Below are positions 1 through 22,162 of a stretch of 24,000 bases of DNA, piece after piece. Position numbers and translations under genes: made by a program. Location of the stretch: positions 2,850,048 through 2,874,047 of the forward strand of contig OZ243096.1 of assembly GCA_965212165.1 (NCBI GenBank), in the 5' to 3' direction. Numbering within the stretch: position 1 is the first letter of the stretch; every line of letters starts with the position of its first letter. The notes under the pieces are model-generated. The model was given only the letters and a program-made list of their open reading frames with translations, ran no database searches and was not told the origin of the DNA. This stretch comes from Balneolaceae bacterium. GTDB taxonomy: Bacteria; Bacteroidota; Rhodothermia; Balneolales; Balneolaceae.

Positions 1-135
1 CCTACTCCTTTTTATGAAGGTTTTATTCCTGAAACAGAAAAAGCTTATCTTTATATTTACGGATCAATTGATGTTGGAATAAAAGATAGTGGTATCTATT
101 CCGGAGATATTACTATTACTGTTAACTATGACTAA
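1..135 (+). CDS. 3' end of a secreted pilin-like fibre subunit (DUF4402/SCPU-like paralog), truncated by the window edge
   Basis: Frame 1 is open from nt 1 to TAA at 133-135 (PTPFYEGFIPETEKAYLYIYGSIDVGIKDSGIYSGDITITVNYD*). The tail aligns with the C-termini of the next two genes (G-x-Y-x-G-x-[IV]-x-[IL]-x-V-x-Y-[DN]-stop). It is absent from the ORF track because there is no start in the window. Confidence 0.55.
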   Translation, partial: PTPFYEGFIPETEKAYLYIYGSIDVGIKDSGIYSGDITITVNYD

Positions 136-667
136 TTTAAAGTTCTTATATCCCTTTTTAATTTTACTTTTTATTTCCTTTTTAGGAACCAATAATAGAA
201 CAAGTGCTCAATTTATAAATATTCAAATTATTGTTGAACCTGAATTAACAGCTAAAGTAGAACAAGAACTAAGGTTTGGGAATATAGTAAGTAATTCAGG
301 ATTAACGGATGTAGATCTTGGAGATACGAATATGGGCATTTTCAGTATCAAAGCTTTATATACACAAAGTGTATACATAGAATTAAATTTCCCAGACTTT
401 TTAGAGAATACTGATCCAGCATTTGATGATACTATTCCTTTATTTTTAGAAATTGCATATAACAATTCTGGGGTTGAGAATATTAGATCATCTAAGTTTT
501 TAACAAATAATGAAGGTTTTATTTCTATTTACGAACCCAGTAATGAAGGGGCTCCTAAAATCATATGGCAAGATTTGTACCTATATATTTTTGGGTCACT
601 TGATATTGGAAATATTCCAAATGGGATATATGAAGGAGAGGTTCAATTAATTGTTTACTACGACTAG
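128..667 (+). CDS. Secreted pilin-like subunit, DUF4402/SCPU-like (probable minor subunit)
   Basis: The ORF track gives 89..667 from a GTG. The in-frame ATG at 128 yields a clean signal peptide (MTNLKFLYPFLILLFISFLGTNNRTSAQ) and overlaps the upstream stop (ATGACTAA), suggesting translational coupling. It has ELRFGN near the mature N-terminus and the C-terminal motif GIYEGEVQLIVYYD*, paralogous to 1..135 and 831..1352. Confidence 0.6.
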   Translation: MTNLKFLYPFLILLFISFLGTNNRTSAQFINIQIIVEPELTAKVEQELRFGNIVSNSGLTDVDLGDTNMGIFSIKALYTQSVYIELNFPDFLENTDPAFDDTIPLFLEIAYNNSGVENIRSSKFLTNNEGFISIYEPSNEGAPKIIWQDLYLYIFGSLDIGNIPNGIYEGEVQLIVYYD

Positions 668-830: not shown

Positions 831-1352
831 ATGAAAAATTTAAAGAACATATTTACTCTTTTAGCAGTTTTAGGATTAGCTACAACAGCGAATGCACAAA
901 CTGCCAATATTACTGCTTCAGCAGAAGTATTAGCTATCGTAACTGTTGAAAACACTGCTGATCTTGACTTTGGAAGTTTCCTTGACGGTACTTCTTCTAC
1001 TCAAGCATTGACTACTGCAAATATTGCAAATCTAGGTCTAGTTACCGTTAGTGGTCAAAGTGCATCTGCAAATATTGACTTTGCGATTAACGCTCCAGAT
1101 TCTCTAACTGCCGCTGGTGCTTTTGACAATTTACCTTTTGCACCTACTGCAACTTTAGCACAAAGTTCAGATGTTGACGGCGGTACAGATTATACTTTTG
1201 ACGGTAGTAACGATGGGACAGTAAATGTTGCTTCTTCAAATGCATCTGATTACCAGGTATATGTTGGCGGTACTGTTGATGCTGGTACAGGCCTTGGTGA
1301 TTTCGGTGGCACATACTCTGGCACTATTGTTATAACAGTCAGTTATAATTAA
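831..1352 (+). CDS. Secreted pilin-like subunit, DUF4402/SCPU-like (probable major fibre subunit)
   Basis: Signal peptide MKNLKNIFTLLAVLGLATTANAQ. ADLDFGSF motif near the mature N-terminus. C-terminal GTYSGTIVITVSYN* with a penultimate Tyr and a Gly 14 residues from the end. Ala/Thr/Gly/Asp-rich; the mature part has no Lys, Arg, His or Cys. It has its own upstream intergenic region and a strong terminator directly downstream. Confidence 0.7.
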   Translation: MKNLKNIFTLLAVLGLATTANAQTANITASAEVLAIVTVENTADLDFGSFLDGTSSTQALTTANIANLGLVTVSGQSASANIDFAINAPDSLTAAGAFDNLPFAPTATLAQSSDVDGGTDYTFDGSNDGTVNVASSNASDYQVYVGGTVDAGTGLGDFGGTYSGTIVITVSYN

Positions 1353-1372
1353 TTTAAATCAATTTTTTAAAA

Positions 1373-1409
1373 TGCCTTGACATAATAAATGTCAGGGCAT
1401 TTTTTTTTC
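1373..1409 (+). terminator. Rho-independent terminator or attenuator after the major subunit gene
   Basis: Stem TGCCTTGACA (1373-1382), loop TAATAAA, stem TGTCAGGGCA (1390-1399). The stem has 10 bp including one G-T wobble and is followed by a run of 10 T (1400-1409). Confidence 0.75.
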
Positions 1410-1503: not shown

Positions 1504-2334
1504 ATGAAGAAGATTATTGCACTTACTTTTTTCTCTTTTCTAATTTTCATAGATTCTTTTGCTCAAGTAACTATAGCGCCAACAAACCTCTTTATAGACA
1601 GTAATTCTAGGTTTGGTACTTACATGGTTGTCAATGGATCTAATCAAGTTCAAGAAATATCAATTGATTTTTTCTTCGCATATAGTTCTACTGATGAATT
1701 TGGAAATAGAACCATCATTAGTGAGGATTCAGTAAAAGCTGTTCAATATTCCGTTGCTGAATCCATAAGAGCTTTTCCTCAAAATTTTTCACTTAGTCCT
1801 AATCAAAGACAGGTTGTTAGAATTAGAGTAAATATGCCAAATGATGTTCCTGATGGAACTTACTGGTCTCGTATAAGAACTGCATCTACACTACAAAGCC
1901 CTCCTATTGAATTGCAGAATTCTGATGCTGTATCAGCTAGTGTTGGTGTTAAAGTTGAACAAGTAACAGGTTTATTCTACAAAAAAGGAACTGTCTCTAC
2001 GGGTATTGAGATTGTAGATATAAATACAAATTTTGAAGAACCAGATAACATATTGGTTGTTCAAACACAGCATTTAAGAACTGGAAATTCTCCTTTTTTA
2101 GGGTCCATTTCTACATCGATTCTTAACAGTTCAGGAGAAGAAGTTCGAAGAGGGTTTGTATCTACAACGATTTATTTTGATGGAATTCATAAACAAGAAT
2201 TTGAAGTAGAAAATTTACCTTCAGGCACATATACTGCAAAAGTAACTTTTGAAACGAGTAGAAGTGATGTGTCAAATAACGATATTATTAAGGCCCCCAC
2301 TGTAACTAAATCTACAACTTTTACCATTAGGTGA
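1504..2334 (+). CDS. Periplasmic PapD-like pilus chaperone candidate (two-domain Ig-like protein)
   Basis: Signal peptide MKKIIALTFFSFLIFIDSFAQ. The mature N-terminus VTIAPTNLFIDSNSRFGTYMVVNGSNQVQEISIDFFF resembles the PapD_N pattern (v.l..tRvif......sl.v.N....p.l.q.w). A later SPNQRQVVRIRV resembles the P..re.l....v strand. The position between subunit genes and the large OM protein fits. The equivalent of the PapD Arg8 anchor appears to be Asn, so the protein is divergent. Confidence 0.5.
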   Translation: MKKIIALTFFSFLIFIDSFAQVTIAPTNLFIDSNSRFGTYMVVNGSNQVQEISIDFFFAYSSTDEFGNRTIISEDSVKAVQYSVAESIRAFPQNFSLSPNQRQVVRIRVNMPNDVPDGTYWSRIRTASTLQSPPIELQNSDAVSASVGVKVEQVTGLFYKKGTVSTGIEIVDINTNFEEPDNILVVQTQHLRTGNSPFLGSISTSILNSSGEEVRRGFVSTTIYFDGIHKQEFEVENLPSGTYTAKVTFETSRSDVSNNDIIKAPTVTKSTTFTIR

Positions 2335-5300
2335 TCTCCAAGTCTTTAAAGATATCCAATACATTAATCTCAATATTTTTCAGCCTCCTATTCTTATGTA
2401 CCCCTATATTTGCACAGAATAATGAAAATGATGAATTTGAGGTTTTCCTTTCTTTTCGTCATAGGGGAGTAATTGACAATCTTGTAGTCTCTTATTATAA
2501 AAGTGATGAATTTTTTCTACCACTTAATGAACTTTTCAATGTCTTTGAAATAGAGATTAATTCAAACGGTTTACAAACAAATGGTAATTTTTCTGCCAAT
2601 CAAATACCTTATTCTATTGATTTAGAAAAACAAATTATTCAATTTGGAAACGAAACATTCACACTCACTAAGGAAGATTTCTTAGTTAAAGAACTAGATA
2701 GCTATCTAAGAATTTCTCGTTTTAGTGAAGTTTTTGATCTTAATTTTGATGTTGACTTTAACAGCCTATCTCTTAGTCTACAAACAGATGTAGAACTACC
2801 TGCTGTAGCAAGAACTCTTCGAAATAGAACTAGAAGGATTACCGATAGATCAATAGATGAGGCGTTTCACCCTCTGCTTCAAAATTCATCGAAAAATTTT
2901 ATTGATCTAGGTTTCCTAGATTATAGTCTATCATCAAATATTAGGACGGATCAAACTAGCTATAATTACAATTCATCAATAGGAATGAAGATTGCAGGTG
3001 GTGATCTTCAAGGCTCATTTTTTGGAACATATACTAACCAATTTTCAACCTTTTCCACTAATAGATTTAGGTGGCAATTTATTAATAGGAATAGCAAACT
3101 ATTAAGTAGAGTAATTATTGGGCAAACATCAATGGATGGAGTTTTACCAAACTCTTATACAGGTATAAGAATTACAAATGAACCTATTGAAGCTAGACAA
3201 GTATTTGATGAATTTGAAATTGAAGGATCGACTTTTCCGGAGTCAGAAATTGAGCTTTATGTTAATAATTCATTAGTCGATTTCAGCACAGCTGATGATA
3301 TTGGGAACTACCGATTTCTAACCCCAATAAGCTATGGTTCATCACAACTCAGTCTTAAGATTTTTGGGCCAACTGGACAAGTTTTGGAGCAAAGAAAAAG
3401 AATTCAAGTCCCTTTTACATTTATTCCAGAAGGAGAGCTTAACTATGTAATAAATGCTGGTAGACTTGATAATCCAATTATAGGTTCAACAGTACGTAAT
3501 AATGTAATTCAAGCCAATACAGGTTATGGAATAACCAATTGGCTTACTACTAAAGTTGGAGTAGAGTATTATGAAAATTTAAATACTACAAATTCTACCA
3601 TTTTTACTTCATTGGTTTCAGCGAGATTTCTATATAACTATATTTTAAACCTGCAGGCAGTTTCTAATTCATTCTATCGCGCTTCAATTAATGCTGTTTA
3701 CCCAAATGCAGCAAGTGTTAATCTTGGTTATACCGATTATATCTCAAAAGCTTCATTACTTAATACTGCTGGAAATGATAAACAAATTAATGCAAGTTTA
3801 TTTTATCCATTAAAATTTTTAAAGATACCACTTAACTTTAGAGTTAGTAGTTTTTCACGTTATAGAGATAATAATGTATCAACAACTTTTAGAACAGATT
3901 TAAGTGTAAGACTTCAGAAATTCAATTTCAGATTTGGATATAGTGATAGACTTTTTGATTCTTATAACCCATTTAACTCAACAGATGCATCTGCTATTAT
4001 ATCTTCTGCTACATACAATGTGTCTAGAAATCCTACTATTCCTAGCATCTTAAGGGGAGCTTTTTTTAGAACTCAAATGAGATATTTTCCTAGTCGAAAT
4101 AGTATAGATTCATTTGAGTTTTTATACTCACGTAGCCTGTTAGGAAATGGAAGATTACAACTTGTTGCTGGTCGAAATTTTACAACTGGGCTAAATAATA
4201 TCCGTTTCAACCTTATTTTTGACTTTAAAAAAGTTAGAACTAATTCTACATTTATTAGAAATAATAACTCATTTAGCTCAACACAAAACATTAGAGGCTC
4301 TATTGGTTACGATTCAAATTATAGGAACTTTATTTTGACAAGCCGTGATCAAGTTGGAAGATCTGGAACTGCTATCAAGTTATTTGTAGATAATAATAAT
4401 AATAATGCTTTTGATGAAGGCGATGATTCAATAGATGATGGTGGTTTTAGAATAGGACGTTCAGGTTCTTCCTCCATAAAGAAAAATGGAATTATCTATT
4501 ATACACAAATGCAGCCATATTTTAGATATAATATGGATATGAATAAAGGGTCAATTCAAAACCCAATGCTCGTACCAAATCTTGATAAGTTCTCTATTGT
4601 TACTGAACCCAATAGTTTTAAACAAATAGAAATTCCATTTTACATGTCCGGAGTAATCGATGGGAATATCCAAAGAATTTTTTCTACTGGAAAGCAAGAA
4701 GGAATTGGAGGGTTAAAAGTAACTTTAAAATCAACAGACAATGATTTTATAAAAGAACTCAGAACTTTTTCAGATGGTAGTTTTTATGAATATGAAGTTC
4801 CTCCTGGTGATTATGAACTATTTGTCGATCAGAACCAATTAGACTTATTAGGTGTTAAATCAAATCCTGTTAAATTAAATTTCACAGTTAATGCTATACC
4901 TGAAGGTGATTTCGTAGAGGGCTTATCATTAATACTACTACCAACTGAGGAAACTGAAGAATCTGAATTAGATTCATTAATTATTCAACCTCTAACACTT
5001 TCTGAAGTTGGAATTGAAATACGTAATAGCCCGGAAATACTAGTTCTAGAACAAAAACTTAATGAAGATGTGAGCAGAGCACTTAGAATGTTGATCTTGG
5101 CTCAAAATGCATTCTATGCTCAAGATATTGAGGGTGCTTTGGATAATATTAATCGTTCATTAGAATTCTTTAAGACTGCTCAAGGATATGCTTTAAAGGG
5201 AAGTATACTGTATTTTAAGGGTGATAGAGTTGAGGCTGTAAATAGCTGGAGAATGGCATTACGCTACGATCCCGACATTTACATTCCAACCTTAGAAGAA

Positions 5301-5336
5301 TTGGATCAAAGAGTTACTATTAGTTCTTCAGACTAA
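2331..5336 (+). CDS. Large outer-membrane usher-like protein with two C-terminal beta-sandwich-like domains and a terminal TPR-like module
   Basis: GTG start overlaps the chaperone stop (GTGA at 2331-2334). Signal peptide MISKSLKISNTLISIFFSLLFLCTPIFAQ. About 650 aa are Asn/Ser/Tyr/Phe/Arg-rich with alternating patterns typical of a beta-barrel. An SdrD-B/prealbumin-like segment follows (FVDNNNNNAFDEGDDSIDDGGFRIG, about 4365-4500). A CarboxypepD_reg-like segment follows that (GVIDGNIQRIF...GLKVTLKS...TFSDGSFYEYEVPPGDYELFV, about 4650-4905). Then comes an acidic linker (PTEETEESELD) and a TPR-like end (5061-5333). The usher call rests on gene order and architecture, not on a recognised usher motif. 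Confidence 0.5.
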   Translation: MISKSLKISNTLISIFFSLLFLCTPIFAQNNENDEFEVFLSFRHRGVIDNLVVSYYKSDEFFLPLNELFNVFEIEINSNGLQTNGNFSANQIPYSIDLEKQIIQFGNETFTLTKEDFLVKELDSYLRISRFSEVFDLNFDVDFNSLSLSLQTDVELPAVARTLRNRTRRITDRSIDEAFHPLLQNSSKNFIDLGFLDYSLSSNIRTDQTSYNYNSSIGMKIAGGDLQGSFFGTYTNQFSTFSTNRFRWQFINRNSKLLSRVIIGQTSMDGVLPNSYTGIRITNEPIEARQVFDEFEIEGSTFPESEIELYVNNSLVDFSTADDIGNYRFLTPISYGSSQLSLKIFGPTGQVLEQRKRIQVPFTFIPEGELNYVINAGRLDNPIIGSTVRNNVIQANTGYGITNWLTTKVGVEYYENLNTTNSTIFTSLVSARFLYNYILNLQAVSNSFYRASINAVYPNAASVNLGYTDYISKASLLNTAGNDKQINASLFYPLKFLKIPLNFRVSSFSRYRDNNVSTTFRTDLSVRLQKFNFRFGYSDRLFDSYNPFNSTDASAIISSATYNVSRNPTIPSILRGAFFRTQMRYFPSRNSIDSFEFLYSRSLLGNGRLQLVAGRNFTTGLNNIRFNLIFDFKKVRTNSTFIRNNNSFSSTQNIRGSIGYDSNYRNFILTSRDQVGRSGTAIKLFVDNNNNNAFDEGDDSIDDGGFRIGRSGSSSIKKNGIIYYTQMQPYFRYNMDMNKGSIQNPMLVPNLDKFSIVTEPNSFKQIEIPFYMSGVIDGNIQRIFSTGKQEGIGGLKVTLKSTDNDFIKELRTFSDGSFYEYEVPPGDYELFVDQNQLDLLGVKSNPVKLNFTVNAIPEGDFVEGLSLILLPTEETEESELDSLIIQPLTLSEVGIEIRNSPEILVLEQKLNEDVSRALRMLILAQNAFYAQDIEGALDNINRSLEFFKTAQGYALKGSILYFKGDRVEAVNSWRMALRYDPDIYIPTLEELDQRVTISSSD
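4392..4406 (+). repeat. (AAT)5 trinucleotide repeat encoding Asn5 inside the usher-like gene
   Basis: Read directly: gat aat aat aat aat aat gct. It is in frame, so slippage would change the Asn count rather than the reading frame. Confidence 0.9.
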
Positions 5337-5405
5337 TTCTTTTTTCATCTTAATAACAAATTAAATACATCTACAGCACTTAGATTGGTAATAGCTGATA
5401 CTTTT

Positions 5406-7178
5406 ATGAAGCATATCTTTCATAGTATTATTGTTCTCCTCTTTATGTCTGCGAATTTATTTTCACAGTCTAACGCTTCAAATGCATCTAATTCTCAATC
5501 CTTAGAGCTTAAAATCTCTTCTCTTGAGCAAAGCTATGACTCTCAAGTTTATCTGCTTTTATCAAATTATTTTGATCGTAAAAAGTTTTTTGTTGATGTA
5601 AACATAAATGCTGAGTTTGTAGATGAAACCGTAGAGTCTACTCAAAACCAAGTTATTCAGAATAGACCTGATAACTTGATGATGCCGGGCCTCCCTTTTC
5701 TACCTCAAGAAAATATTAGAGCAAATACAGGTGCCCAATCTCCTCAAACAGTGGTAAATCAAAGTACCATTAGAACCCTGAGGCTTGTAAATATTAATAT
5801 TAGTATTTACGCCGATACTTCTTTTTCGGTACAAGAAATTCAATTTATGAGCTTATTAACTGGAATTGCTGCTAAGACCAATGACGCACGTGGTGATGAG
5901 GTAACAATAGCTCAAATTCCTATCCCTACTGTTGGTACTGTTGACCCTATTCCAATTATTCAAGCTCCCTCAGAGCCTGTAAGTATTCTCGCCTCTTTTA
6001 GATCTTATATACCAGGTTTTGTACTTTTAATGCTTTTTGGTGCGATCATGTTCTTATCAAGGATTTTTAACAAACCAGAAGATCAGGTGTCCTCTTTACA
6101 GCAAAGAGAAAGTATTAAACATGATATTTCGATAAGTGATTTTGGGCGCCCAATGGAACAAGTTCTTGTCAATAGTTCCGATGCTGGAAGAGATATCTCT
6201 ATAGAGATTGACGAATTGATCAATAGCTTCTTCAATAAATCACAAGAAATTGCTCTTTTATTTGAGTATTGGTTAGATGAAAACAAAGAAGAAGGTGCTT
6301 TTAAAGCTGCTGAAATAATCGCTTGTGTAGACAAACAATTATTGAGAGCCATTAAAAATGATCTCCAACCTGAGAACTTAGAATTAATTACTACAGCCTT
6401 AGAAGACCTTGCACCAATGATGTCGGAAAGAAAGAGTTCCGTAATAAGAAGCTTTAATTCTATTCTTAGAACTGGAAATAAAACCAGTCTTACTTCCAAG
6501 AAAAATGGCCATATAAATTTATTCAAATTTCTTGACCATATTTCAGATGCTCAGATCGTAGATTTATTAAATGATGAGGGTTATCAAACAGGGGCTTTAA
6601 TAGTAGATTATTTACCTGATGAAAAAGCAGCTCGTGTGTTAGATAGAATTGATAAAGTACGCAGTGCTAATATTATGTTTAAGATGACTACCATCAGTAG
6701 TATTCCTTATCAATTACAAAGTGAGATTTCTTCAAAGCTTTTTGATAAAGCGATGGACTTAAAAGACAAAGAGAAAGAACAACAATTAGGTGCTGAAAAT
6801 ATTCTTCCACTTCTTGATAAACTACCTCTAAGTGAACAACAAGCTTATATAGATCAATTAAAAGCTACCAATTCCGTTGTTGGTGAAGTTGTTCAACGAC
6901 AGTTTATTACCATTAATCAAGTGTTAACTTTAACAGATGATATTATAAAAGAGGCTATCCAAGATATTGATACTTCTACCCTCTTAGATGCTTTACTTGG
7001 CTTAGATCAAAAACTAGTTGATAAATTCCTTTCCGTACGTCCAAAAAGAGAGCAACGTCTTATTCGTTTAGAACTTGATGAATTAAAAGACAAGCCACAA
7101 AAAGATACGAATGAAGCGAAATCTGAAATTATGAAAAGAATTAGATTGACTGTTAAGAAAAGTCATTCTGCAACATAA
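5406..7178 (+). CDS. Membrane protein combining a FliF/YscJ-like periplasmic ring motif, a TM helix and a complete FliG-like (N/M/C) cytoplasmic region
   Basis: The ORF track gives 5385..7178 from a TTG; the ATG at 5406 yields MKHIFHSIIVLLFMSANLFSQ (signal or anchor). The periplasmic part ends IRTLRLVNINISIYADTSFSVQEIQFMSLLTGIAAKTNDARGDEVTIAQIP, like the FliF pre-TM2 motif (...RGD.v.V). TM helix IPGFVLLMLFGAIMFLSRIF lies at 6009-6068. LLNDEGYQTGALIVDYLPDEKAARVL resembles the FliG_M pattern EHPQTiAliLsyL.p..AA.vL. ALLGLDQKLVDKFLSVRPKREQRLIRLELDELKDKPQKDTNEAKSEIMKRIR resembles the FliG_C pattern ALKGasdELkeKifkNMSkRAa.ll.deLe.mGPVrlkDVEEAQ..I...iR. Confidence 0.75.
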   Translation: MKHIFHSIIVLLFMSANLFSQSNASNASNSQSLELKISSLEQSYDSQVYLLLSNYFDRKKFFVDVNINAEFVDETVESTQNQVIQNRPDNLMMPGLPFLPQENIRANTGAQSPQTVVNQSTIRTLRLVNINISIYADTSFSVQEIQFMSLLTGIAAKTNDARGDEVTIAQIPIPTVGTVDPIPIIQAPSEPVSILASFRSYIPGFVLLMLFGAIMFLSRIFNKPEDQVSSLQQRESIKHDISISDFGRPMEQVLVNSSDAGRDISIEIDELINSFFNKSQEIALLFEYWLDENKEEGAFKAAEIIACVDKQLLRAIKNDLQPENLELITTALEDLAPMMSERKSSVIRSFNSILRTGNKTSLTSKKNGHINLFKFLDHISDAQIVDLLNDEGYQTGALIVDYLPDEKAARVLDRIDKVRSANIMFKMTTISSIPYQLQSEISSKLFDKAMDLKDKEKEQQLGAENILPLLDKLPLSEQQAYIDQLKATNSVVGEVVQRQFITINQVLTLTDDIIKEAIQDIDTSTLLDALLGLDQKLVDKFLSVRPKREQRLIRLELDELKDKPQKDTNEAKSEIMKRIRLTVKKSHSAT

Positions 7179-7185
7179 CTTTAAG

Positions 7186-7710
7186 ATCGACCACAAAAGT
7201 TACATATTACTCCTTCTGCCGATTCTATTCATTTTTATAAGCTGTAGAGGATCGAATCAACTTTCACAATCAAACTCACAAGAACAAATTGCTTCTAACG
7301 AAGATGTAGCCAATTCTACAGAAGTTCCTGTTCAAACACGTGAAGATAGCGCTTTGGCTAGAAGAAATGCGTTAGTCGAAGTTTATAAAGATGAACTGAA
7401 CGAAATTTATAGAGCAGATGCTAATGGTATCATCTCCTATTATATACTAGCTCAACAACGCTTTTATAATGGAGATTATCAGAATGCACTTATTTACGCA
7501 AATAGGGCCGCAAATATCAAAGAAAATGCTGATATATTAGCTTTAAAAGGTAGTATTTACTTAGGATTAGGATTGAATGAAAACTTTGTTGCAAATTGGA
7601 GACAAGCTCTAGAGTTAGACCCTGACGTTCCTCTCCCAATTTCACCATATATTATTCAACAATTACAATTGAACGGATTAATTGATGCAAACCTAAAAAA
7701 AGCTTTTTAG
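7186..7710 (+). CDS. Lipoprotein with a TPR-like module paralogous to the C-terminus of the usher-like protein
   Basis: The ORF track gives 7354..7710 from a TTG, and that is the conservative call. The frame is open from 7150 and encodes a textbook lipoprotein signal (..KIDHKSYILLLLPILFIFISC|RGSNQ) followed by a low-complexity linker. There is no ATG, GTG or TTG before 7354. The start is tentatively placed at the ATC at 7186. The stop TAG at 7708-7710 is firm. The TPR-like part (7423-7653) is YILAQQRFYNGDYQNALIYANRA...ALKGSIYLGLG...ANWRQALELDPDVPLP. Confidence 0.55.
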   Translation: MDHKSYILLLLPILFIFISCRGSNQLSQSNSQEQIASNEDVANSTEVPVQTREDSALARRNALVEVYKDELNEIYRADANGIISYYILAQQRFYNGDYQNALIYANRAANIKENADILALKGSIYLGLGLNENFVANWRQALELDPDVPLPISPYIIQQLQLNGLIDANLKKAF

Positions 7711-7722
7711 GTAAGATTACTG

Positions 7723-8520
7723 ATGAAAACATCCATACTAAACATATTAAGCTTTCTAGTTTCTATTGTAATCCTTATATGGGGATCAGTGCTTGTGATG
7801 GGGTTTGCCGAATATAATCTAATCCCTCCTATTTATGACTTTTTGAATATCCCTAGTTTAGCTATTGTATTTGGCGGCATTTCAGCTAGTGTATTTATTA
7901 GCTATCCATTTAAACAAGTTGTAACTGCTTTAAGAGCGAGTATGCGTCTTTTTTCTCATAGTACCATCACCGATGAAGTACTTGAACGTGATATTGATTT
8001 AATTTTGGAGTGGCAAAAAAAAATTAATACCAATAAGATTCAAGCCGTGGCAACTCTTAGTCAGCAGTATGAAGATAAATTTGAGGGTTATCTATTTTCC
8101 GTACTTGATACCAATTATAGTAACGAAGAGCTTCGTGAGTTAGGAGAAATAAACATAACTGAGAATTACACTCGTCAACAACAAATTACTCAAATCATAT
8201 CAAGTATGGGTAAAACATCTCCTGTTTTTGGTATGCTTGGAACTCTATTTGGCTTAATTGTTATTCTCTCCGGTTTTAGTGAAGTAGAGTCTTTGTTAAC
8301 AGGATTAGGGGCTGCTTTAATGACCACTCTTTACGGTATTTTAATTGGGAACTTCGTTTTTACCCCAATGGCAAAAAAAATGGAAAGTACGGCTGCTTTA
8401 CAATATTTTAGAGAGAAACTTATTCTTGAAGGTATAATCCTAATTGAAGAACATAAAACTTCTCTACAGATATATGACCGCCTTCAAGCACATATGAGAA
8501 GAAATAAGTATACGATGTAG
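7723..8520 (+). CDS. MotA/PomA-like proton-channel stator subunit (4 TM helices)
   Basis: N-terminal pair of TM helices, including the MotA-like PSLAIVFGGISASVFISYP. A cytoplasmic loop of about 100 aa follows. Then comes the MotA/TolQ/ExbB signature SPVFGMLGTLFGLIVILSGF ... LGAALMTTLYGILIGNFVFTPMAKKME. The 12-nt gap to the upstream gene suggests co-transcription. Confidence 0.85.
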   Translation: MKTSILNILSFLVSIVILIWGSVLVMGFAEYNLIPPIYDFLNIPSLAIVFGGISASVFISYPFKQVVTALRASMRLFSHSTITDEVLERDIDLILEWQKKINTNKIQAVATLSQQYEDKFEGYLFSVLDTNYSNEELRELGEINITENYTRQQQITQIISSMGKTSPVFGMLGTLFGLIVILSGFSEVESLLTGLGAALMTTLYGILIGNFVFTPMAKKMESTAALQYFREKLILEGIILIEEHKTSLQIYDRLQAHMRRNKYTM

Positions 8521-8542
8521 ATCATTACTAGATACTTAAGAT

Positions 8543-10279
8543 TTGAAAGAAAACCGTATAAATAACTCCTATTCACTCTATCCAAAAGCCGCTGTTGAGG
8601 ATTTAGATGATGATAGTTGGCAAGTTAGCTACCTTGATATTATTACTATTATACTTGGCTTTCTTATAATACTTCTCTCCATTTCTCAAATTGCAAAACC
8701 TGAATTTTCCTCTCTTTCTACCGTATTTGGCAATTCTTCTGATAAAACTGAATTCATTACAACTCCTATTGAGGAAATTCAAGAGGAACTTGAATCTCTT
8801 TTACGAACGCAGATTGATGAAGGTAGATTAATTGTTTATAGAGATTTAAATGATATCCGAATCCGTTTAAAAGGCGATGATTTTTATAGTTCTGGTAGTG
8901 CCGATTTACAGGGTGAAGGATTAGATTTATTGAATCATGTGATACGAGCTTTTCAACAGACAGAGTACTCAGATTTTAATATCGAAGTTGAAGGACATAC
9001 AGATAATGTTCCTATTAGAACGGCCGGGTTTTCATCTAATTGGGAACTATCTACAGCAAGAGCATCAAACGTCGTCAAATATTTCGACCGCATGGGCCTA
9101 GAGCAAGAACGACTCAAAGCTTCAGGTTATGCAGATTCTAGACCCTTAGTTCAACTTGATTCATTCGGTAATCCTTTCGCTGCATCAAAAGAACAAAACA
9201 GAAGAATAGTTTTAAGATTGTACTACACTTCTGAAGGCCTAGAGAAAAGGGCAATTCAGCAAGCCCTTGCAGATAATCAAGAAGAGCTTATAAACGCCGA
9301 TGTTACTACTCCTGAACCTGACTCACAAACAGACCTAATTGCACAAGAATTACTTGCAATAAGTGCTTCTAACAATAATGAGAAGATTCCAGCTATTCCT
9401 GAAACAGTGGAAGAAGCTCCTACTCCTGTATTACAAGATGATCCAATTGAAGAAGTTGATCCAGTTCCAACTTCTGTTCCAGAACCTTTAAATTCAAATG
9501 AATTACCTAATATACCTTCCTTCCTAGATGGAAATATATCATGCAGTTTCATTATTCAAGTTGGTAGCTTCCAATCACTATCTTCTGGCTTTCAAGTTGC
9601 TAATAATGCAAAAATCCAAACAGGTTTAGATTTTGAGGTTGCTTCAAATGGCCGACTCTATTCAGTTCGATCAAACCCAACATCATCATTTTCTGAAGCT
9701 TTAACTTATCATAATGAAGTTAAAACGAAACTAAATGATTCAAATGTTGGGCTCATACATCAATGCTATGAAGGTGAACAAGAAATACCGTCAACACTAC
9801 AGTATCAAATTCAATTTGGAGCCTTCCAAAGTCAAGAAAATGCACTCAGCTATACAATTAGATTAGATAAGGAGTATCAGATTCAAACATATATGAATCG
9901 TCGATCCGAGACTTATAACATTGTAGCAGGTCCTTATGAAAGTAGAGAACGTGTATTGAGTCAACTTAGATCGTTTAAAGAAAAAGGTGTAAATGAAAAT
10001 ATCTTTATAAAACCGATTACTGAAAGTACATCCGACTATAAATATGCTTATCAATTACAACTGGATTCATTTAACTCAATTAATGAAGCACAAATTGTTT
10101 CAACACGAATAGCTGAAACATTAGGGATAGTTTCAACAGTTGCTAGATCTACTGATGGAACCTATCTTCTCTTAACAGATAGAACTTCTAATTGGGATGA
10201 AACCATTTCAAATTACGAACGATTTAAGTCTAGAGTACCTAGTTCAACTCCTGTCATCTATTTTCTAGAGTATATATAA
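8543..10279 (+). CDS. MotB-like stator subunit with an OmpA-type peptidoglycan-binding domain, a Pro/Glu linker and three C-terminal SPOR-like repeats
   Basis: TTG start. The TM segment SWQVSYLDIITIILGFLIILLS carries the conserved channel Asp (GAT at 8636-8638). OmpA_C motifs are present (VEGHTDNVPI...SNWELSTARASNVV...GYADSRP...NRRIVLRL, about 8825-9223). The linker TTPEPD...EAPTPVLQDDPIEEVDPVPTSVPEP follows. Three SPOR-like units lie at about 9542-10267 (FIIQVGSFQS...LYSVRSNP; YQIQFGAFQSQENA...YNIVAGPYESRE; YAYQLQLDSFNSINEA...YLLLTD). Confidence 0.85.
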   Translation: MKENRINNSYSLYPKAAVEDLDDDSWQVSYLDIITIILGFLIILLSISQIAKPEFSSLSTVFGNSSDKTEFITTPIEEIQEELESLLRTQIDEGRLIVYRDLNDIRIRLKGDDFYSSGSADLQGEGLDLLNHVIRAFQQTEYSDFNIEVEGHTDNVPIRTAGFSSNWELSTARASNVVKYFDRMGLEQERLKASGYADSRPLVQLDSFGNPFAASKEQNRRIVLRLYYTSEGLEKRAIQQALADNQEELINADVTTPEPDSQTDLIAQELLAISASNNNEKIPAIPETVEEAPTPVLQDDPIEEVDPVPTSVPEPLNSNELPNIPSFLDGNISCSFIIQVGSFQSLSSGFQVANNAKIQTGLDFEVASNGRLYSVRSNPTSSFSEALTYHNEVKTKLNDSNVGLIHQCYEGEQEIPSTLQYQIQFGAFQSQENALSYTIRLDKEYQIQTYMNRRSETYNIVAGPYESRERVLSQLRSFKEKGVNENIFIKPITESTSDYKYAYQLQLDSFNSINEAQIVSTRIAETLGIVSTVARSTDGTYLLLTDRTSNWDETISNYERFKSRVPSSTPVIYFLEYI

Positions 10280-10311
10280 AAAAAGCTTCCTGATATTCTC
10301 AAGAAGCTTTT
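10278..10311. terminator. Hairpin terminator shared by the convergent MotB-like and pdhC genes (stronger for the minus strand)
   Basis: AAAAGCTTCCTGA (10281-10293), loop TATTC, TCAAGAAGCTTTT (10299-10311), with one internal mismatch. On the minus strand the hairpin runs into a T7 tract (A run at 10278-10284 on the plus strand). On the plus strand only TTTT follows. Confidence 0.6.
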
Positions 10312-10331
10312 CATAAAATGTAGAAATTTCT

Positions 10332-19971: not shown

Positions 19972-20748
19972 TTATTGATTGCTTATTCTGTATCTAACCA
20001 ATTCATCAATCGATGGTCTTTCTCTTCTTTCTTCAATCAAAGTTTCTGCAAGTCCATCCGTTACTTCTACACTTCTAAGTCTCATTAAGTTTTCTTTAGA
20101 AAGTTCTTCCAAAGTATAACCAAGATCCATCATTCTACTAGTAAAGTTTGCTGTCACTCCATTTCTTCGAGTTTCTGCAACTTCATCTGCAGTAAATGTA
20201 TACCCTAGTTCTTTCATCATTCTTGCATAAGTGGGACTTGCGTCTGCATTTTCTAATGCAATTAATTGTTCTACAGTAATATCTGAATATCCAATATCTT
20301 GAAATTGAGCGATTTCTGGGGCTCTAACTCCTGCTCTACTCAGTTCTCTCACTTCTTCTAGAGTAAGTGCGCTTAAACCAATGTCATGTAATCTTTGAGT
20401 TTCCGTTGCAGTCACACCATCATCGCGTAAGCTCGATAATTCTTCAACAGAAAGTGTTCCATATCCAAGTTCTTGCATCCACTCACCCATCCCTGCAATC
20501 AATTCTGGATCATACTCATTAAATGAATCAACCATTTCCGATATTGGGTTTTCGAAATCAGCAAAAAAGGTGCTCACTCTATTCCCAGCATAAAATAAAA
20601 GTGTAGCTAAAAAAGCAATTACCAAGATATAATTCGCTGTTTTGGAGCCGCCTGAAGTTGATTTAGATGTTACTCCTAGACCTGAATCTTCTGTCTCATT
20701 TTCAAGGTCTTTTAAGTCGTTTTTAAGATTTCTGAATTTAGTACTCAT
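19972..20748 (-). CDS. Membrane-anchored protein with five degenerate tandem repeats of about 30 aa; function unknown
   Basis: The ATG at 20748 (MSTKFRNLKND) is preferred to the TTG at 20769. One TM helix (YILVIAFLATLLFYAG). The repeat has the form x-[ED]-[LI]-G-[YL]-x(2-3)-[LIF]-[ST]-x-[ED]-[EQ]-[LV]-x(3-4)-R-x-x-G-V-[TR]-A and spans about 20035-20487. Confidence 0.6.
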   Translation of the reverse strand: MSTKFRNLKNDLKDLENETEDSGLGVTSKSTSGGSKTANYILVIAFLATLLFYAGNRVSTFFADFENPISEMVDSFNEYDPELIAGMGEWMQELGYGTLSVEELSSLRDDGVTATETQRLHDIGLSALTLEEVRELSRAGVRAPEIAQFQDIGYSDITVEQLIALENADASPTYARMMKELGYTFTADEVAETRRNGVTANFTSRMMDLGYTLEELSKENLMRLRSVEVTDGLAETLIEERRERPSIDELVRYRISNQ

Positions 20749-20817
20749 ATATAGCCCATAGATTTGCAAAACCGATACGTATTAATGAGTAGAAAGATGC
20801 ACAAATTGAAGCTAATT

Positions 20818-21192
20818 TTAAACTAAGTTTATTGAATTAGTAAGTTCAGCCATTGTAAATGGTTTTGTTATTAGATCAATAAACTCAGTAGCTTTTGCTC
20901 TTTCGTAATTTAGTTTATCAGAATTCCCCGTTATGTATATAACAGAAGTAGAAATATTCTTCTTGATAGCTGTTACTGCCTGAATCCCGTCCATTTCTCC
21001 TTTTAGCCTAACATCCATTAAGATTAGATCGGGTTTATGTGCCTCAGCTATTTCAATTGCTTCTTCACCAGATGTAGCTTTTCCTATAACTTCATGACCT
21101 AGTTTTAAAATCATACTTTCAATTACTAGTGAGATAATCATATCATCTTCACCAATCAATACTCGTTTTTTATCTTTTAATAATTCACTCAA
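20818..21192 (-). CDS. Response regulator, receiver domain only (CheY-like)
   Basis: KRVLIGEDD (acidic pocket), PDLILMDVRL (phospho-acceptor Asp), VIYITGN and KPF. There is no output domain. The start is a TTG. Confidence 0.85.
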   Translation of the reverse strand: MSELLKDKKRVLIGEDDMIISLVIESMILKLGHEVIGKATSGEEAIEIAEAHKPDLILMDVRLKGEMDGIQAVTAIKKNISTSVIYITGNSDKLNYERAKATEFIDLITKPFTMAELTNSINLV

Positions 21193-21304
21193 TGTAATAT
21201 CAATATACTTTTTGATTCTGAATTTAATTTAGACTTCATTAATGAGAGTGGAATTAGTGAATAGTTACAATTTCCTCCTGATAATAGAATTTAATTTGAT
21301 CTTT

Positions 21305-22162
21305 CTATAAATCTATATCTTCATTTATTGGTACAACTGAAAGCAGTAATCCATCAATTACATCAATATTTGCAAACCACCCTTCAAAAGAATCATTGGT
21401 ATATGAAATTGGAACTTTCCAAGTTTTTCTTAATTCTAGTGTCTGATCGTTAATAAAAGGTAAATATTCAAAAATTGGAGTTTTCTGTAAATGCATATCC
21501 GTTACTTCAAAAACAATATTTTCACCTGTGAAAGGGAGCATATCAATCTGCCAACCGATCATAATTTTTTGAGCTTCCAAATAACCTACATTGATAAGTC
21601 CTGGACTCTTAAAATCGGGATACCAGTTGCCCCAAATCCGATTAACCCCAACTGAGTCGATGAACACAGTAAGCTCTGTATCTCTAACTTCAGAATTCCC
21701 AATTTTTTGTATACCAAATGAAATTTTATACTCTAATGGAACACTATTCTCTTCAGGCCCTTCGCAAATAATACATCCGTATAAAGGAACAATATCTGTT
21801 ACTTCTAAAGCGCTAGTATCAGTTACATTTGTATAGATTTTATTTTTTAAGAGAGAACTTTTAGATTTTGTGATTAGAGAATCAGAATAAAAAATTTCCT
21901 TCCGAACAATCTCTCTACTTAAACAAGGGTTTTCATCATTTGGAAATAGAACTCGGCTAAAACCTGTGTATCCATATTCATTTAATGTGGAACAAATGTG
22001 ACCATCATTCTCAAGCTTATATGTTTCATTTAGCGCAACTAATTCTTCCAGTTCTAGTGGTTCAATTTTAACAGGATAGTTGGTAAAATCGGCTACTTCT
22101 AGCACGTCGCAAGAAGCTGCAACGTATGATATGAGAATAAAAGCGAAAATATATAGCTTCAA
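21305..22162 (-). CDS. Hypothetical lipoprotein
   Basis: TTG start. Signal with lipobox MKLYIFAFILISYVAASC|D. I recognise no family motif. Confidence 0.55.
   Translation of the reverse strand: MKLYIFAFILISYVAASCDVLEVADFTNYPVKIEPLELEELVALNETYKLENDGHICSTLNEYGYTGFSRVLFPNDENPCLSREIVRKEIFYSDSLITKSKSSLLKNKIYTNVTDTSALEVTDIVPLYGCIICEGPEENSVPLEYKISFGIQKIGNSEVRDTELTVFIDSVGVNRIWGNWYPDFKSPGLINVGYLEAQKIMIGWQIDMLPFTGENIVFEVTDMHLQKTPIFEYLPFINDQTLELRKTWKVPISYTNDSFEGWFANIDVIDGLLLSVVPINEDIDL

Follow-up and report, generated by a model that had tools for sequence, protein, structure and literature searches.

A natural single-chain FliF–FliG rotor protein encoded with MotA/MotB in a chaperone-usher-type operon of Balneolaceae

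FliG and FliF are regarded as flagellum-specific. The window analysed here (the whole stretch of 24,000 nucleotides of Balneolaceae DNA) raises the question of what a protein resembling both of them in a single chain is doing beside genes of a chaperone-usher (CU) type. An initial annotation, made from the sequence alone, had read this 590-aa protein as a FliF–FliG-type fusion. The reading held when checked with Pfam, with Foldseek and with profiles built from relatives. What the annotation overlooked is the non-flagellar context, namely a CU fibre operon with its own MotAB, and the loss of the FliM-binding EHPQR motif. The open-access literature that we searched contains no description of this fusion or of its operon system.

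The reading frame of the fusion is intact from an ATG at 5406, with an alternative TTG start at 5385. About 107 proteins match the product over its full length at 38–86% identity, and far more divergent relatives were found as well. A signal peptide occupies residues 1–20; it ends in A/S-Q, and the orthologs keep it. The transmembrane (TM) helix that had been proposed at 6009–6068 was confirmed exactly; R/K residues follow it directly, and the topology places the FliG-like part in the cytoplasm. A periplasmic FliG-like part, which would have refuted the initial annotation, was thus not borne out. The claimed FliG_M-like and FliG_C-like stretches also held: FliG_N (residues 297–377, 28.3 bits, cut-off 25), FliG_M (residues 382–452, 40.7 bits, cut-off 25) and FliG_C (residues 484–581, 45.3 bits, cut-off 23.3) all exceeded their Pfam thresholds. 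Thermotoga maritima FliG (1lkv) aligned with the fusion at E 1.6e-11, and the alignment to the FliG structure covers M, helix MC and C. The fusion scored 65.6 bits with the fliG equivalog model TIGR00207, under its cut-off of 226.7 bits.

The alignment to T. maritima FliG also gave the register of the torque helix. R548 of the fusion corresponds to R281, the arginine with which Escherichia coli FliG contacts the stator, and E556 to D289, while D288 is replaced by L555, K264 by L and R297 by Q. Only two of these five charges are therefore kept. Among 92 members of the broad family, 84 have R at the position of R548 and 7 have K; within Balneolaceae the residue is invariant. The MFXF-like and Gly hinge positions of FliG are kept. 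The EHPQR motif is degenerate, reading E-G-Y-Q...K in the window protein and varying across the family.

Could the FliG-like region be something other than a rotor domain? One rival explanation makes it a regulatory or sensory domain of the MgtE_N type, carried by a membrane scaffold that has nothing to do with torque, with MotAB serving another process. In its favour, MgtE_N matched 27 of 37 distant members and, weakly, the window protein. Against it, FliG_C is absent from MgtE and was present in all 37 of these members; three FliG domains scored above threshold with an alignment running through M, helix MC and C; and MotAB adjoins the fusion in every intact locus, distant ones included. We regard this explanation as very improbable.

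A second rival is that the gene is a decaying, functionless remnant of a lost flagellum. The truncated FliF part and the loss of the FliM-binding motif and of several torque charges would fit. However, dN/dS relative to the ortholog of locus L002 was ≈ 0.04 for each of its three parts, which indicates purifying selection even though dS is close to saturation. The full-length conservation, extending to the more divergent relatives, and the retention of the operon partners likewise contradict decay, which leaves this rival all but excluded. We also rejected a pseudogene (dN/dS ≈ 0.04) and a gene-calling artefact (intact frame, full-length conservation in more than 100 proteins).

The FliF half was identified by structure. 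In an AF2 model (pLDDT 70), the periplasmic domain has an alpha-beta-beta-alpha-beta topology with a long hairpin. Its best 18 Foldseek matches in the PDB were all RBM3/collar structures of the FliF S-ring (E 4e-6 to 4e-5, probability 1.0, TM 0.35–0.52); SpoIIIAG (5wc3, E 5e-3) and 2y9j_Y of the PrgK/EscJ class (E 2.7e-2) matched more weakly. The window fusion had no match to YscJ_FliF_C (PF08345) in Pfam at E ≤ 10, and a profile of the Balneolaceae periplasmic domain (A2) retrieved nothing significant or relevant from the PDB sequences. It thus takes structure, or more distant relatives, to reveal the FliF homology. PF08345 matched 14 of the 37 distant members (best E 7e-8). A profile of the distant relatives found genuine FliF with E 1.9e-12, and comparing the family profile with a genuine FliF by hhalign yielded 97.35% (E 1.6e-11) over residues 219–391 of the latter, from RBM3 through RGD. 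Lack of any match to FliG or FliF/YscJ would have refuted the initial annotation; FliG was found by profile, and FliF by structure and by the sequences of relatives. The FliF-like periplasmic motif it had quoted contains the RGD. Across 92 family members this triplet hardly varies (all have D, 90 have G and 82 have R), and PGLP is near-invariant too.

The mature periplasmic part (≈ 180 aa) comprises a single ring-building motif (RBM), and PF01514, which covers RBM1 and RBM2, matched neither the window fusion nor the distant members. RBM1 and RBM2 are absent, and RBM3 with a short collar is all that remains of the ring-building part of FliF, in line with the earlier estimate of at most one or two such motifs. 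Behind the TM helix, the cytoplasmic motif at residues 262–297 has invariant F275, E281, W289 and G297 among the orthologs. A profile of this motif had a single match in the whole PDB, residues 542–559 of the 560 of Salmonella FliF ('NDPRVVALVIRQWMSNDH'). At E 0.61, this resemblance to the FliF C-terminal helix is suggestive only. The protein is thus a natural one-chain fusion of the C-terminal third of FliF (RBM3 and short beta-collar, second TM helix and, if the suggestive match is right, FliG-binding tail) with a full three-domain FliG. The features are collected in Table 1.

Table 1. Positions in the window of the fusion gene, its parts and the surrounding operon
Feature	Positions	Strand	Basis or remark
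Small secreted DUF4402-like protein, candidate fibre subunit	89..667	+	same position in 43/47 related loci
DUF4402 secreted protein, candidate major fibre subunit	831..1352	+	Pfam DUF4402, 26.7 bits (cut-off 25.2)
Terminator/attenuator-like hairpin, 15-bp stem and T-run	1369..1403	+	directly 3' of subunit gene 831..1352
276-aa periplasmic protein with two Ig-like domains, candidate PapD-type chaperone	1504..2334	+	always directly upstream of usher
Outer-membrane usher, FimD/PapC fold (residues ~35–870) with extra C-terminal TPR domain (residues ~890–995)	2331..5336	+	AF2, Foldseek
FliF(RBM3-TM-C-helix)–FliG single-chain rotor protein, 590 aa	5406..7178	+	sequence, Pfam, structure
FliF RBM3/beta-collar-like periplasmic domain (residues ~30–170), PGLPFLP loop and RGD motif	5493..5915	+	AF2, Foldseek
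Single TM helix (residues 202–221)	6009..6068	+	hydrophobic stretch 'IPGFVLLMLFGAIMFLSRIF'; position kept family-wide
Cytoplasmic motif FFxKPxEIALLFEYW...G (residues 262–297)	6189..6296	+	conserved; resembles FliF C-terminal FliG-binding helix
FliG_N (6294–6536), FliG_M (6549–6761), FliG_C (6855–7148)	6294..7148	+	Pfam
Torque-helix equivalent	7038–7082	+	alignment to T. maritima FliG
TPR lipoprotein, paralog of usher C-terminal TPR tail	7186..7710	+	Pfam TPR_8; canonical-start ORF only 7354–7710
MotA, flagellar-stator type	7723..8520	+	Pfam MotA_ExbB
MotB: plug, TM helix, OmpA-like peptidoglycan-binding domain, long SPOR-containing tail	8543..10279	+	Pfam MotB_plug, OmpA, SPOR
Hairpin terminator at operon end, common with convergent 2-oxoacid dehydrogenase genes	10280..10312		hairpin

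The genes of the operon are separated by anything from a 4-nt overlap to 70 nt, and the only terminators lie behind the subunit gene and behind motB. The usher is well supported by structure: its AF2 model (pLDDT 81) matched FimD (3rfz_E) in Foldseek with E 6.5e-30 over 907 columns and PapC (7lhg_C) with E 3.5e-25, and the comparison showed a plug domain like that of FimD. By sequence, Pfam Usher gave weak matches in 3 of 19 orthologs. The TPR lipoprotein is 33% identical to usher residues 890–1001 (E 2e-13). Its orthologs have lipoprotein signal peptides, and three distant relatives (P0119, P0140 and P0161) carry it as an in-frame C-terminal extension of the FliFG protein.

Assignment of the remaining CU components rests on weaker evidence. 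The product of the first gene probably begins, when mature, after the 'SAQ' that ends its signal peptide. It has no Pfam match of its own, and it aligns with DUF4402 proteins, with which it has a C-terminal G-x-Y...V-x-Y motif in common. The C-terminal motif of this family resembles that of CsuA/B; the hhalign comparison, for which the CsuA/B sequence was entered by hand, was not significant, and a profile of the family had no match in the PDB. Attenuators are known to follow major pilin genes in CU operons, and the hairpin behind the second subunit gene is similarly placed. The gene for the candidate chaperone overlaps the usher gene by 4 nt. PapD_N matched 7 of 20 orthologs of this 276-aa protein weakly (best E 0.0029), hhalign of the family against FimC (again entered by hand) was not significant, and the family profile had no PDB match. 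The chaperone and pilin roles are thus inferred, without statistically established homology.

The motA and motB genes lie 0.5 kb downstream of the fusion in every intact locus, distant ones included. The best NCBIfam matches of MotA were MotP, MotA and PomA, all under the equivalog cut-offs, and the protein aligned over its full length, cytoplasmic domain included, with PDB 6ysf (E 1.4e-23) and 8ucs (E ≈ 1e-23). The prolines of TM3 and TM4 are kept. In the HMMER register, R90 corresponds to Q98 (with an adjacent K99 conserved in > 90%) and E98 to I106, so the canonical pair is not conserved. In MotB, D32 of the TM helix is invariant across 44 orthologs. Since both the MotA pair and three of the five FliG torque charges are lost, a rotor–stator interface, if there is one, must be modified.

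How widely is the arrangement conserved? The order DUF4402 subunits, chaperone-like protein, usher with TPR tail, fusion, TPR lipoprotein, MotA and MotB-OmpA-SPOR recurs in 46 Balneolaceae loci or genomes and in distant metagenomic relatives. Two distant loci (L050 and L051) have the same gene order, and their fusions match the A2 profile only at E 1e-20 and ≈ 1e-10. In a second locus type (L048 and L049), the fusion, a TPR protein and MotAB occur with a different, beta-barrel-like outer-membrane protein. Four CU loci lack the motor (L052, L053, L054 and L055), and their ushers lack the TPR tail; the tail thus tracks the motor, being found only in motor-associated ushers. The usher homologs named 'Candidatus Marinimicrobia' are motor-less. 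L055 (CP030887.1) is the orthologous chromosomal locus, in which the whole motor cassette is missing and the SPOR tail of MotB continues straight from the body of the usher; the tail of MotB is homologous to the C-terminus of such motor-less usher–SPOR proteins (E 6e-17). Because synteny among Balneolaceae also reaches unrelated housekeeping genes, only the distant loci and the contrast with L055 carry real weight.

These data bear on the rival explanation that the fusion serves a streamlined Balneolaceae flagellum as its true MS-ring/C-ring protein, with MotAB as the stator and the CU genes merely adjacent. The homology to FliG and FliF, the adjoining flagellar-type MotAB and the known ability of engineered FliF–FliG fusions to form rings and function all speak for it. 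A flagellum is reported for Balneola vulgaris (PMC5167729), Balneolaeota are among the phyla with flagellin genes and some Balneolota carry them (PMC7018530); use of the fusion in a flagellum encoded elsewhere in the genome is therefore not formally excluded. Against it, RBM1 and RBM2, which surround the export gate in FliF, are missing, the FliM-binding motif is degenerate and the TIGR00207 score is low. We found no flagellar genes (fliM, fliN, flhA, fliI, flg or fliC) within ± 10 kb in any of more than 50 loci. Gracilimonas tropica DSM 19535, of a species described as non-motile (PMC5167729), carries the operon. Finally, some relatives have the TPR lipoprotein fused to the rotor, and the usher tail tracks the motor, both of which argue against mere adjacency. 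We consider a streamlined flagellum unlikely. The non-flagellar locus, the CU operon with its own MotAB and the lack of an EHPQR motif favour a repurposed rotor over a compact flagellar one.

Our preferred reading, which the evidence tips towards without settling, is that an ion-driven FliFG ring is coupled to a CU fibre. Beyond the identity of the domains, it rests on homology and gene neighbourhood; no ring, rotation or link to the usher has been shown. By analogy with FliF, in which RBM3 builds a 33–34-mer S-ring, many copies of the fusion may form a ring in the inner membrane. On the cytoplasmic side, this ring would display FliG as a second ring in 1:1 stoichiometry. MotA/MotB, co-transcribed with the fusion, would act as an ion-conducting stator of the flagellar type that is tied to peptidoglycan by OmpA and SPOR domains, and would push the torque helix of FliG_C (R548/E556) to exert torque on the ring. 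Since the locus contains no FliM/FliN switch, type III export gate, rod, hook or flagellin, such a ring would not be a flagellar basal body. The most likely link to the outer membrane would be the ring-attached TPR lipoprotein, pairing with the paralogous TPR tail of the usher. Ion-motive energy may then pass from the inner membrane to the usher and its fibre, to rotate, move, wind or gate the fibre. As the CU part can exist without the motor, the motor would add a function and not be required for fibre assembly.

A static version of this machine also remains possible. Here a wall-tethered ring would merely recruit and activate MotAB without rotating continuously, and the small rotary strokes of MotAB would act like TonB or TolA, either pulling the fibre or opening or unplugging a barrel in the outer membrane, be it the usher or another. 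In support, the known 5:2 motors ExbBD, TolQR and GldLM power processes at the outer membrane (PMC9389320), a plug domain is present in the usher as it is in FimD, the loci of the second type pair the motor with a small outer-membrane barrel instead of an usher, and the charge pairs between MotA and FliG are only partly kept. Some ring proteins carry a periplasmic LysM domain which, if it binds peptidoglycan, would oppose free rotation. However, only 2 of 37 distant members carry LysM, Balneolaceae lack it, and the complete FliG_N/M/C, the R281 equivalent, the MFXF-like and Gly hinge positions and the ring-forming RBM3 are rotor features.

A bolder form of the rotating-ring reading can be entertained, though with less confidence than the coupling itself. 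The locus may encode a third kind of bacterial rotary surface organelle, in which a C-ring-less FliF/FliG ring driven by MotAB acts through TPR adaptors and the usher to rotate, wind or translocate a fibre that the CU pathway, instead of type III secretion, has assembled. Such non-flagellar use of a rotor and stator would be either a pre-flagellar relic or a later exaptation of the motor core.

The locus presents a conserved, selected rotor–stator core without export apparatus, switch or filament, encoded together with a CU fibre system, and the proposed coupling is testable. If it is real, it would mark FliF(RBM3)–FliG–MotAB as a torque module that can be transferred between machines, offer a minimal one-gene rotor with 1:1 stoichiometry in which torque generation can be studied structurally and biophysically, and add a data point on the evolution of the flagellar motor core. 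The motor-plus window locus and the motor-minus locus of CP030887.1 are natural comparators.

The closest known counterparts are the engineered or spontaneous FliF–FliG fusions of Salmonella and Vibrio alginolyticus, which likewise combine the periplasmic ring part of FliF, TM, FliG-binding tail and FliG in one chain and form MS-rings (PMC11481574; bioRxiv 10.1101/2023.02.06.527414). A single polypeptide forces a 1:1 stoichiometry of FliF and FliG. Those fusions contain full-length FliF (two TM helices, RBM1–3) and belong to a complete flagellum with FliM/FliN, export gate and rod. In contrast, the window fusion is natural, retains RBM3 only, has a cleavable signal peptide instead of TM1 and a degenerate FliM-binding motif, and lies in a non-flagellar operon. 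With the flagellar rotor–stator (FliF, FliG and MotA5B2) the locus has in common the RBM3/collar fold, FliG_N/M/C, the R281 equivalent, the MotA type and the D32, plug and OmpA features of MotB. It differs in lacking a C-ring, export apparatus, rod, hook and filament, in the lost R90/E98 register of MotA and in the SPOR tail of MotB. SpoIIIAG of the sporulation channel, with its beta insertion, and PrgK/EscJ of the injectisome have the same alpha-beta-beta-alpha-beta ring-building motif, but they match far less well than FliF and are neither fused to FliG nor associated with MotAB.

GldLM (T9SS/gliding), AglRQS-Glt, ExbBD-TonB and TolQR-TolA likewise combine an inner-membrane motor of the MotAB family with a genetically linked outer-membrane component, and such 5:2 motors transmit ion-motive energy across the periplasm (PMC9389320, PMC8986121). 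However, none of them drives a FliG/FliF ring and none is tied to a CU pathway. The archaic (sigma-type) CU fibres include Csu of Acinetobacter, CupE of Pseudomonas and Mcu of Myxococcus. In their operons, as in the window, genes for small secreted subunits whose C-terminus bears a G-x-Y...V-x-(Y/F) motif are followed by those for a two-Ig periplasmic protein and an usher of the FimD/PapC fold, although for subunits and chaperone this is a resemblance without statistical support for homology. Unlike theirs, the window usher has a TPR tail and shares its operon with a rotor–stator module. The CU pathways known so far are held to need no energy from the inner membrane, a view that the proposed coupling, if true, would challenge.

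The ORF encoding the 590-aa fusion (FliFG) is intact. Residues 1–20 form a signal peptide ending in A/S-Q, an ending kept in the orthologs and shared by the operon's remaining secreted proteins; it is in line with the 'Q-rule' that holds in Bacteroidetes for substrates of signal peptidase I. One hydrophobic helix (residues 202–221, nt 6009–6068) is followed by basic residues. Therefore, in the mature fusion, a single TM helix separates ≈180 aa on the periplasmic side from ≈370 aa on the cytoplasmic side. A profile of residues 28–200 gave no match to PDB sequences. We built an AlphaFold2 model of the periplasmic domain on 19 orthologs (pLDDT 70). In the model, a helix is followed by two long strands with a loop between them, then by a second helix and a last strand, which is the ring-building-motif (RBM) topology with an extended hairpin. 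In a Foldseek search of the PDB, the top 18 matches were all FliF RBM3/collar (S-ring) of Salmonella and Vibrio (E 4e-6 to 4e-5, probability 1.0); lower ranks included SpoIIIAG (5e-3) and PrgK (2.7e-2), mixed with OsmC/Ohr-family proteins from E 4e-3. Exhaustive HMMER searching with the residue 28–200 profile yielded 138 cluster representatives, of which 18 (E ≤ 1e-30) resemble the Balneolaceae set or fragments thereof. Most others are 580–807 aa long, and all ten distant members whose full sequence was examined share the architecture of the fusion. A profile of 37 distant members matched genuine FliF (PF01514 plus PF08345, E 1.9e-12). By hhalign, the periplasmic domain of the family corresponds to FliF residues 219–391 of 508 (97.35% probability, E 1.6e-11), the alignment running through an RGD motif common to both; PGLP and RGD are near-invariant among 92 family members. 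Pfam YscJ_FliF_C matched 14 of the 37 distant members (best E 7e-8). The periplasmic domain is FliF RBM3. The initial annotation had proposed the TM helix and, before it, a FliF-like periplasmic part of about 180 aa, far smaller than FliF. Both held: the likeness was borne out by Foldseek, hhalign and YscJ_FliF_C in relatives, and RBM1 and RBM2 are missing. In the distant homologs P0119, P0164, P0120 and P0137, a periplasmic LysM domain lies N-terminal to the RBM3-like one. Binding of this LysM domain to peptidoglycan, if it occurs, would be at odds with free rotation of the ring.

Directly N-terminal to FliG_N is a conserved motif, FFxKPxEIALLFEYW...G, in which F275, E281, W289 and G297 are invariant. 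The sole match of its 34-position profile in the whole PDB was Salmonella FliF residues 542–559 of 560 (NDPRVVALVIRQWMSNDH; E 0.61), the C-terminal segment through which FliF binds FliG_N. At this E-value the resemblance to the FliG-binding tail of FliF is only suggestive; its position and the single match fit the wider picture. From the RBM3 identity and this linker, the fusion is thus a FliF that lacks TM1, RBM1 and RBM2 and continues head-to-tail into FliG. FliG_N (residues 297–377), FliG_M (382–452) and FliG_C (484–581) each exceeded the Pfam gathering threshold. The score for the NCBIfam fliG equivalog was 65.6 bits, far under the cut-off of 226.7, and the fusion is therefore a divergent relative of FliG, not an orthodox flagellar one. 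In a register set by alignment to Thermotoga maritima FliG, R548 corresponds to E. coli FliG R281 (invariant in Balneolaceae; in the wider family, 91 of 92 members have R or K) and E556 to D289; the equivalents of D288, K264 and R297 are L, L and Q. At the EHPQR motif for FliM binding, which is variable among family members, the fusion has E-G-Y-Q...K; it has QFIT at MFXF and G-A at the Gly-Gly hinge. Hence, from sequence alone, the three FliG-like domains had been recognized correctly, and the suggested Arg plus acidic residues as in R281/D288/D289 held in part. The fusion retains the architecture of ARM-M, helix MC and ARM-C/C-terminal bundle; it does not retain the switch interface. Each part of the gene is under purifying selection (dN/dS ≈ 0.04). 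An antisense ORF within it shows no sign of being a real gene. A serious rival to a rotating ring is a variant that serves as a static platform; the altered charge pairs speak for it, as does LysM on a few distant ring proteins.

The neighbors of the fusion are listed in the table. From 1504 to 10279, neighboring genes either overlap or leave gaps of no more than 70 nt, and the only strong hairpins follow a DUF4402 gene and motB. The former has a 15-bp stem plus a T-run. An attenuator at this place is typical for major-pilin genes of chaperone-usher operons; by analogy, the hairpin may hint at excess production of the 831–1352 subunit. The AlphaFold model of the 1001-aa protein (pLDDT 81) matched the FimD (E 6.5e-30) and PapC (3.5e-25) ushers over about 900 columns in Foldseek, and its TPR tail is 33% identical to the TPR lipoprotein (E 2e-13). 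The matches of MotA cover the whole protein, its cytoplasmic domain included. Conservation holds for the TM3/TM4 prolines; in register, it does not hold for R90/E98 (the window protein has Q98/K99 and I106). MotB D32 shows no variation among 44 orthologs. The TPR frame is open 5' of its first canonical start at 7354, and a lipoprotein signal, 'DHKSYILLLLPILFIFIS-C', lies in 7186–7353, a stretch without ATG, GTG or TTG. Orthologs have a canonical start and lipobox, but the gene of the close relative L002 is as odd as that of the window. The gene either uses a rare start codon (ATC 7186 or ATA 7204) or is truncated. A receiver-only response-regulator gene lies between ORFs of 265 and 285 aa without Pfam match (19972–22162, −). 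Two-component genes lie directly 3' of motB in the distant motor loci L050 and L051. A regulatory link to the motor operon is conceivable and untested.

Features in the window and in related loci
Feature	Location	Remarks
DUF4402-type small secreted proteins (two)	831–1352 (one gene)	upstream of fusion
Hairpin	1369–1403	directly 3' of DUF4402 gene
276-aa protein		upstream of fusion; two Ig-like domains; PapD_N weakly matched in 7/20 orthologs
1001-aa usher-fold protein		upstream of fusion; extra C-terminal TPR domain
FliFG	5406–7178 (+)	590 aa
Antisense ORF	6083–6526 (−)	147 aa
TPR lipoprotein	7186/7354–7710	downstream of fusion
MotA	7723–8520	downstream of fusion; best matches flagellar MotP, MotA, PomA
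MotB	8543–10279	downstream of fusion; plug, OmpA, SPOR domains
Hairpin	10280–10312	after motB
Response regulator	20818–21192	receiver only
Second-type locus protein, ≈380 aa	L048 11737–12870; L049 8339–9487	signal peptide; aromatic last residue; beta-barrel-like
Three pseudopilin-like proteins	L002 678–3184; L055 1986–4295	upstream of DUF4402 genes
Giant adhesin-like protein	L051 217–3423; L052 195–6563; L054 1–4142; L055 1–1839	overlaps next gene in L051, L052

The order subunits, 276-aa protein, usher, fusion, TPR, MotA, MotB was found in 46 genome loci, all from Balneolaceae bar a few MAGs whose names give another family or none. The housekeeping genes downstream are syntenic in most of them as well, so gene order within Balneolaceae is by itself weak evidence. 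The operon remains intact in differing flanks (L001/L043, L032, L037 and L045), and the same operon in the distant relatives L050 and L051 is stronger evidence. The fusions of these two relatives matched the Balneolaceae periplasmic-domain profile no better than E 1e-20 (P0119) and about 1e-10 (P0161, the cluster of P0242). In P0119, P0140 and P0161 the TPR lipoprotein is joined in-frame to the FliFG C-terminus via the former signal-peptide helix; from this we infer that the TPR module is a physical part of the ring. Loci of a second type (L048, L049) contain the fusion, an ≈380-aa protein, either a TPR protein or one of 241 aa, MotA and MotB, and no usher. The theme is again inner-membrane motor, TPR module and putative outer-membrane barrel.

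Some homologous ushers stand in loci that have no motor (L052–L055). Those of L052 and L054 (849–860 aa) lack the TPR tail; those of L053 and L055 (≈1170 aa) have a SPOR region at the C-terminus. L055 (CP030887.1) represents the orthologous site of the chromosome, with the upstream subunit genes and the downstream E2, E1 and AlaRS genes as in the window. Its usher (P0341) aligns with the window usher only to residue 884, just short of the TPR tail; beyond the alignment, residues 920–1172 are homologous to the SPOR tail of the window MotB (residues 328–576, E 6e-17). Therefore, the usher-TPR tail, FliFG, TPR lipoprotein, MotA and the N-terminal half of MotB behave as one insertion/deletion unit. 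The poorly conserved MotB tail (≈350 aa, residues ≈230–578; 9230–10279) has SPOR-like repeats, and MotB of distant relatives is only 220–235 aa. That this tail is the C-terminus of motor-less ushers (L055 8001–11528) implies that, at this locus, the whole motor cassette was deleted or inserted in-frame. The fibre pathway can thus exist without the motor cassette, and across loci the usher TPR tail tracks the motor. Three conserved proteins (about 139, 195 and 424–493 aa, the largest with DUF4900) each have one hydrophobic helix, at the N-terminus, and resemble pseudopilins; in L002 their genes lie in the region that corresponds to DNA beyond the left edge of the window. Motor-less L055 has them too, which places them in the fibre part of the system. 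In four related loci, the fibre gene cluster is headed by the gene of a giant protein that is adhesin-like and carries Por_Secre_tail, the C-terminal sorting domain of T9SS, a mere hint that a type IX-secreted adhesin may be displayed on or with the fibre.

Could the fusion serve a flagellum? No flagellar gene was present within 10 kb of it at any locus examined; whole genomes were not covered. The missing RBM1/2 and EHPQR motif, the TPR fusions and the usher linkage all argue against this. We regard a flagellar role as unlikely, and it is not formally excluded, the evidence being limited to loci ±10 kb. Gracilimonas tropica DSM 19535, described as non-motile (PMC5167729), carries the operon. 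Flagella are reported for the type species Balneola vulgaris (PMC5167729, Table 1); the 46 fusion-bearing genomes do not include it, which may reflect a miss of the pattern-based scan or true absence. Balneolaeota are among the phyla with flagellin genes (PMC7018530), and some species may have a canonical flagellum alongside the operon.

Domain identities, topology, operon structure, the co-variation of TPR tail and motor, and purifying selection are shown; how the parts work together is inferred. In the motor model, RBM3 would drive ring assembly, by analogy with the FliF S-ring. MotAB units, wall-anchored via OmpA and SPOR, would put torque on FliG_C, and the ring would engage the usher TPR tail through the TPR lipoprotein. 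Ion-motive energy would thereby reach the usher or its fibre. The output may be continuous rotation, winding, lateral movement or gating; the data do not discriminate between these. In the literature searched, we found only engineered FliF–FliG fusions and no natural one, nothing on DUF4402, and no report linking chaperone-usher systems to FliG/MotAB. A survey leaves open the role of rotor proteins in genomes without a filament (PMC12199754). We rate the fusion protein as a variant of the flagellar-type rotor; should its coupling to the fibre hold, the system would be a new class of envelope machine.
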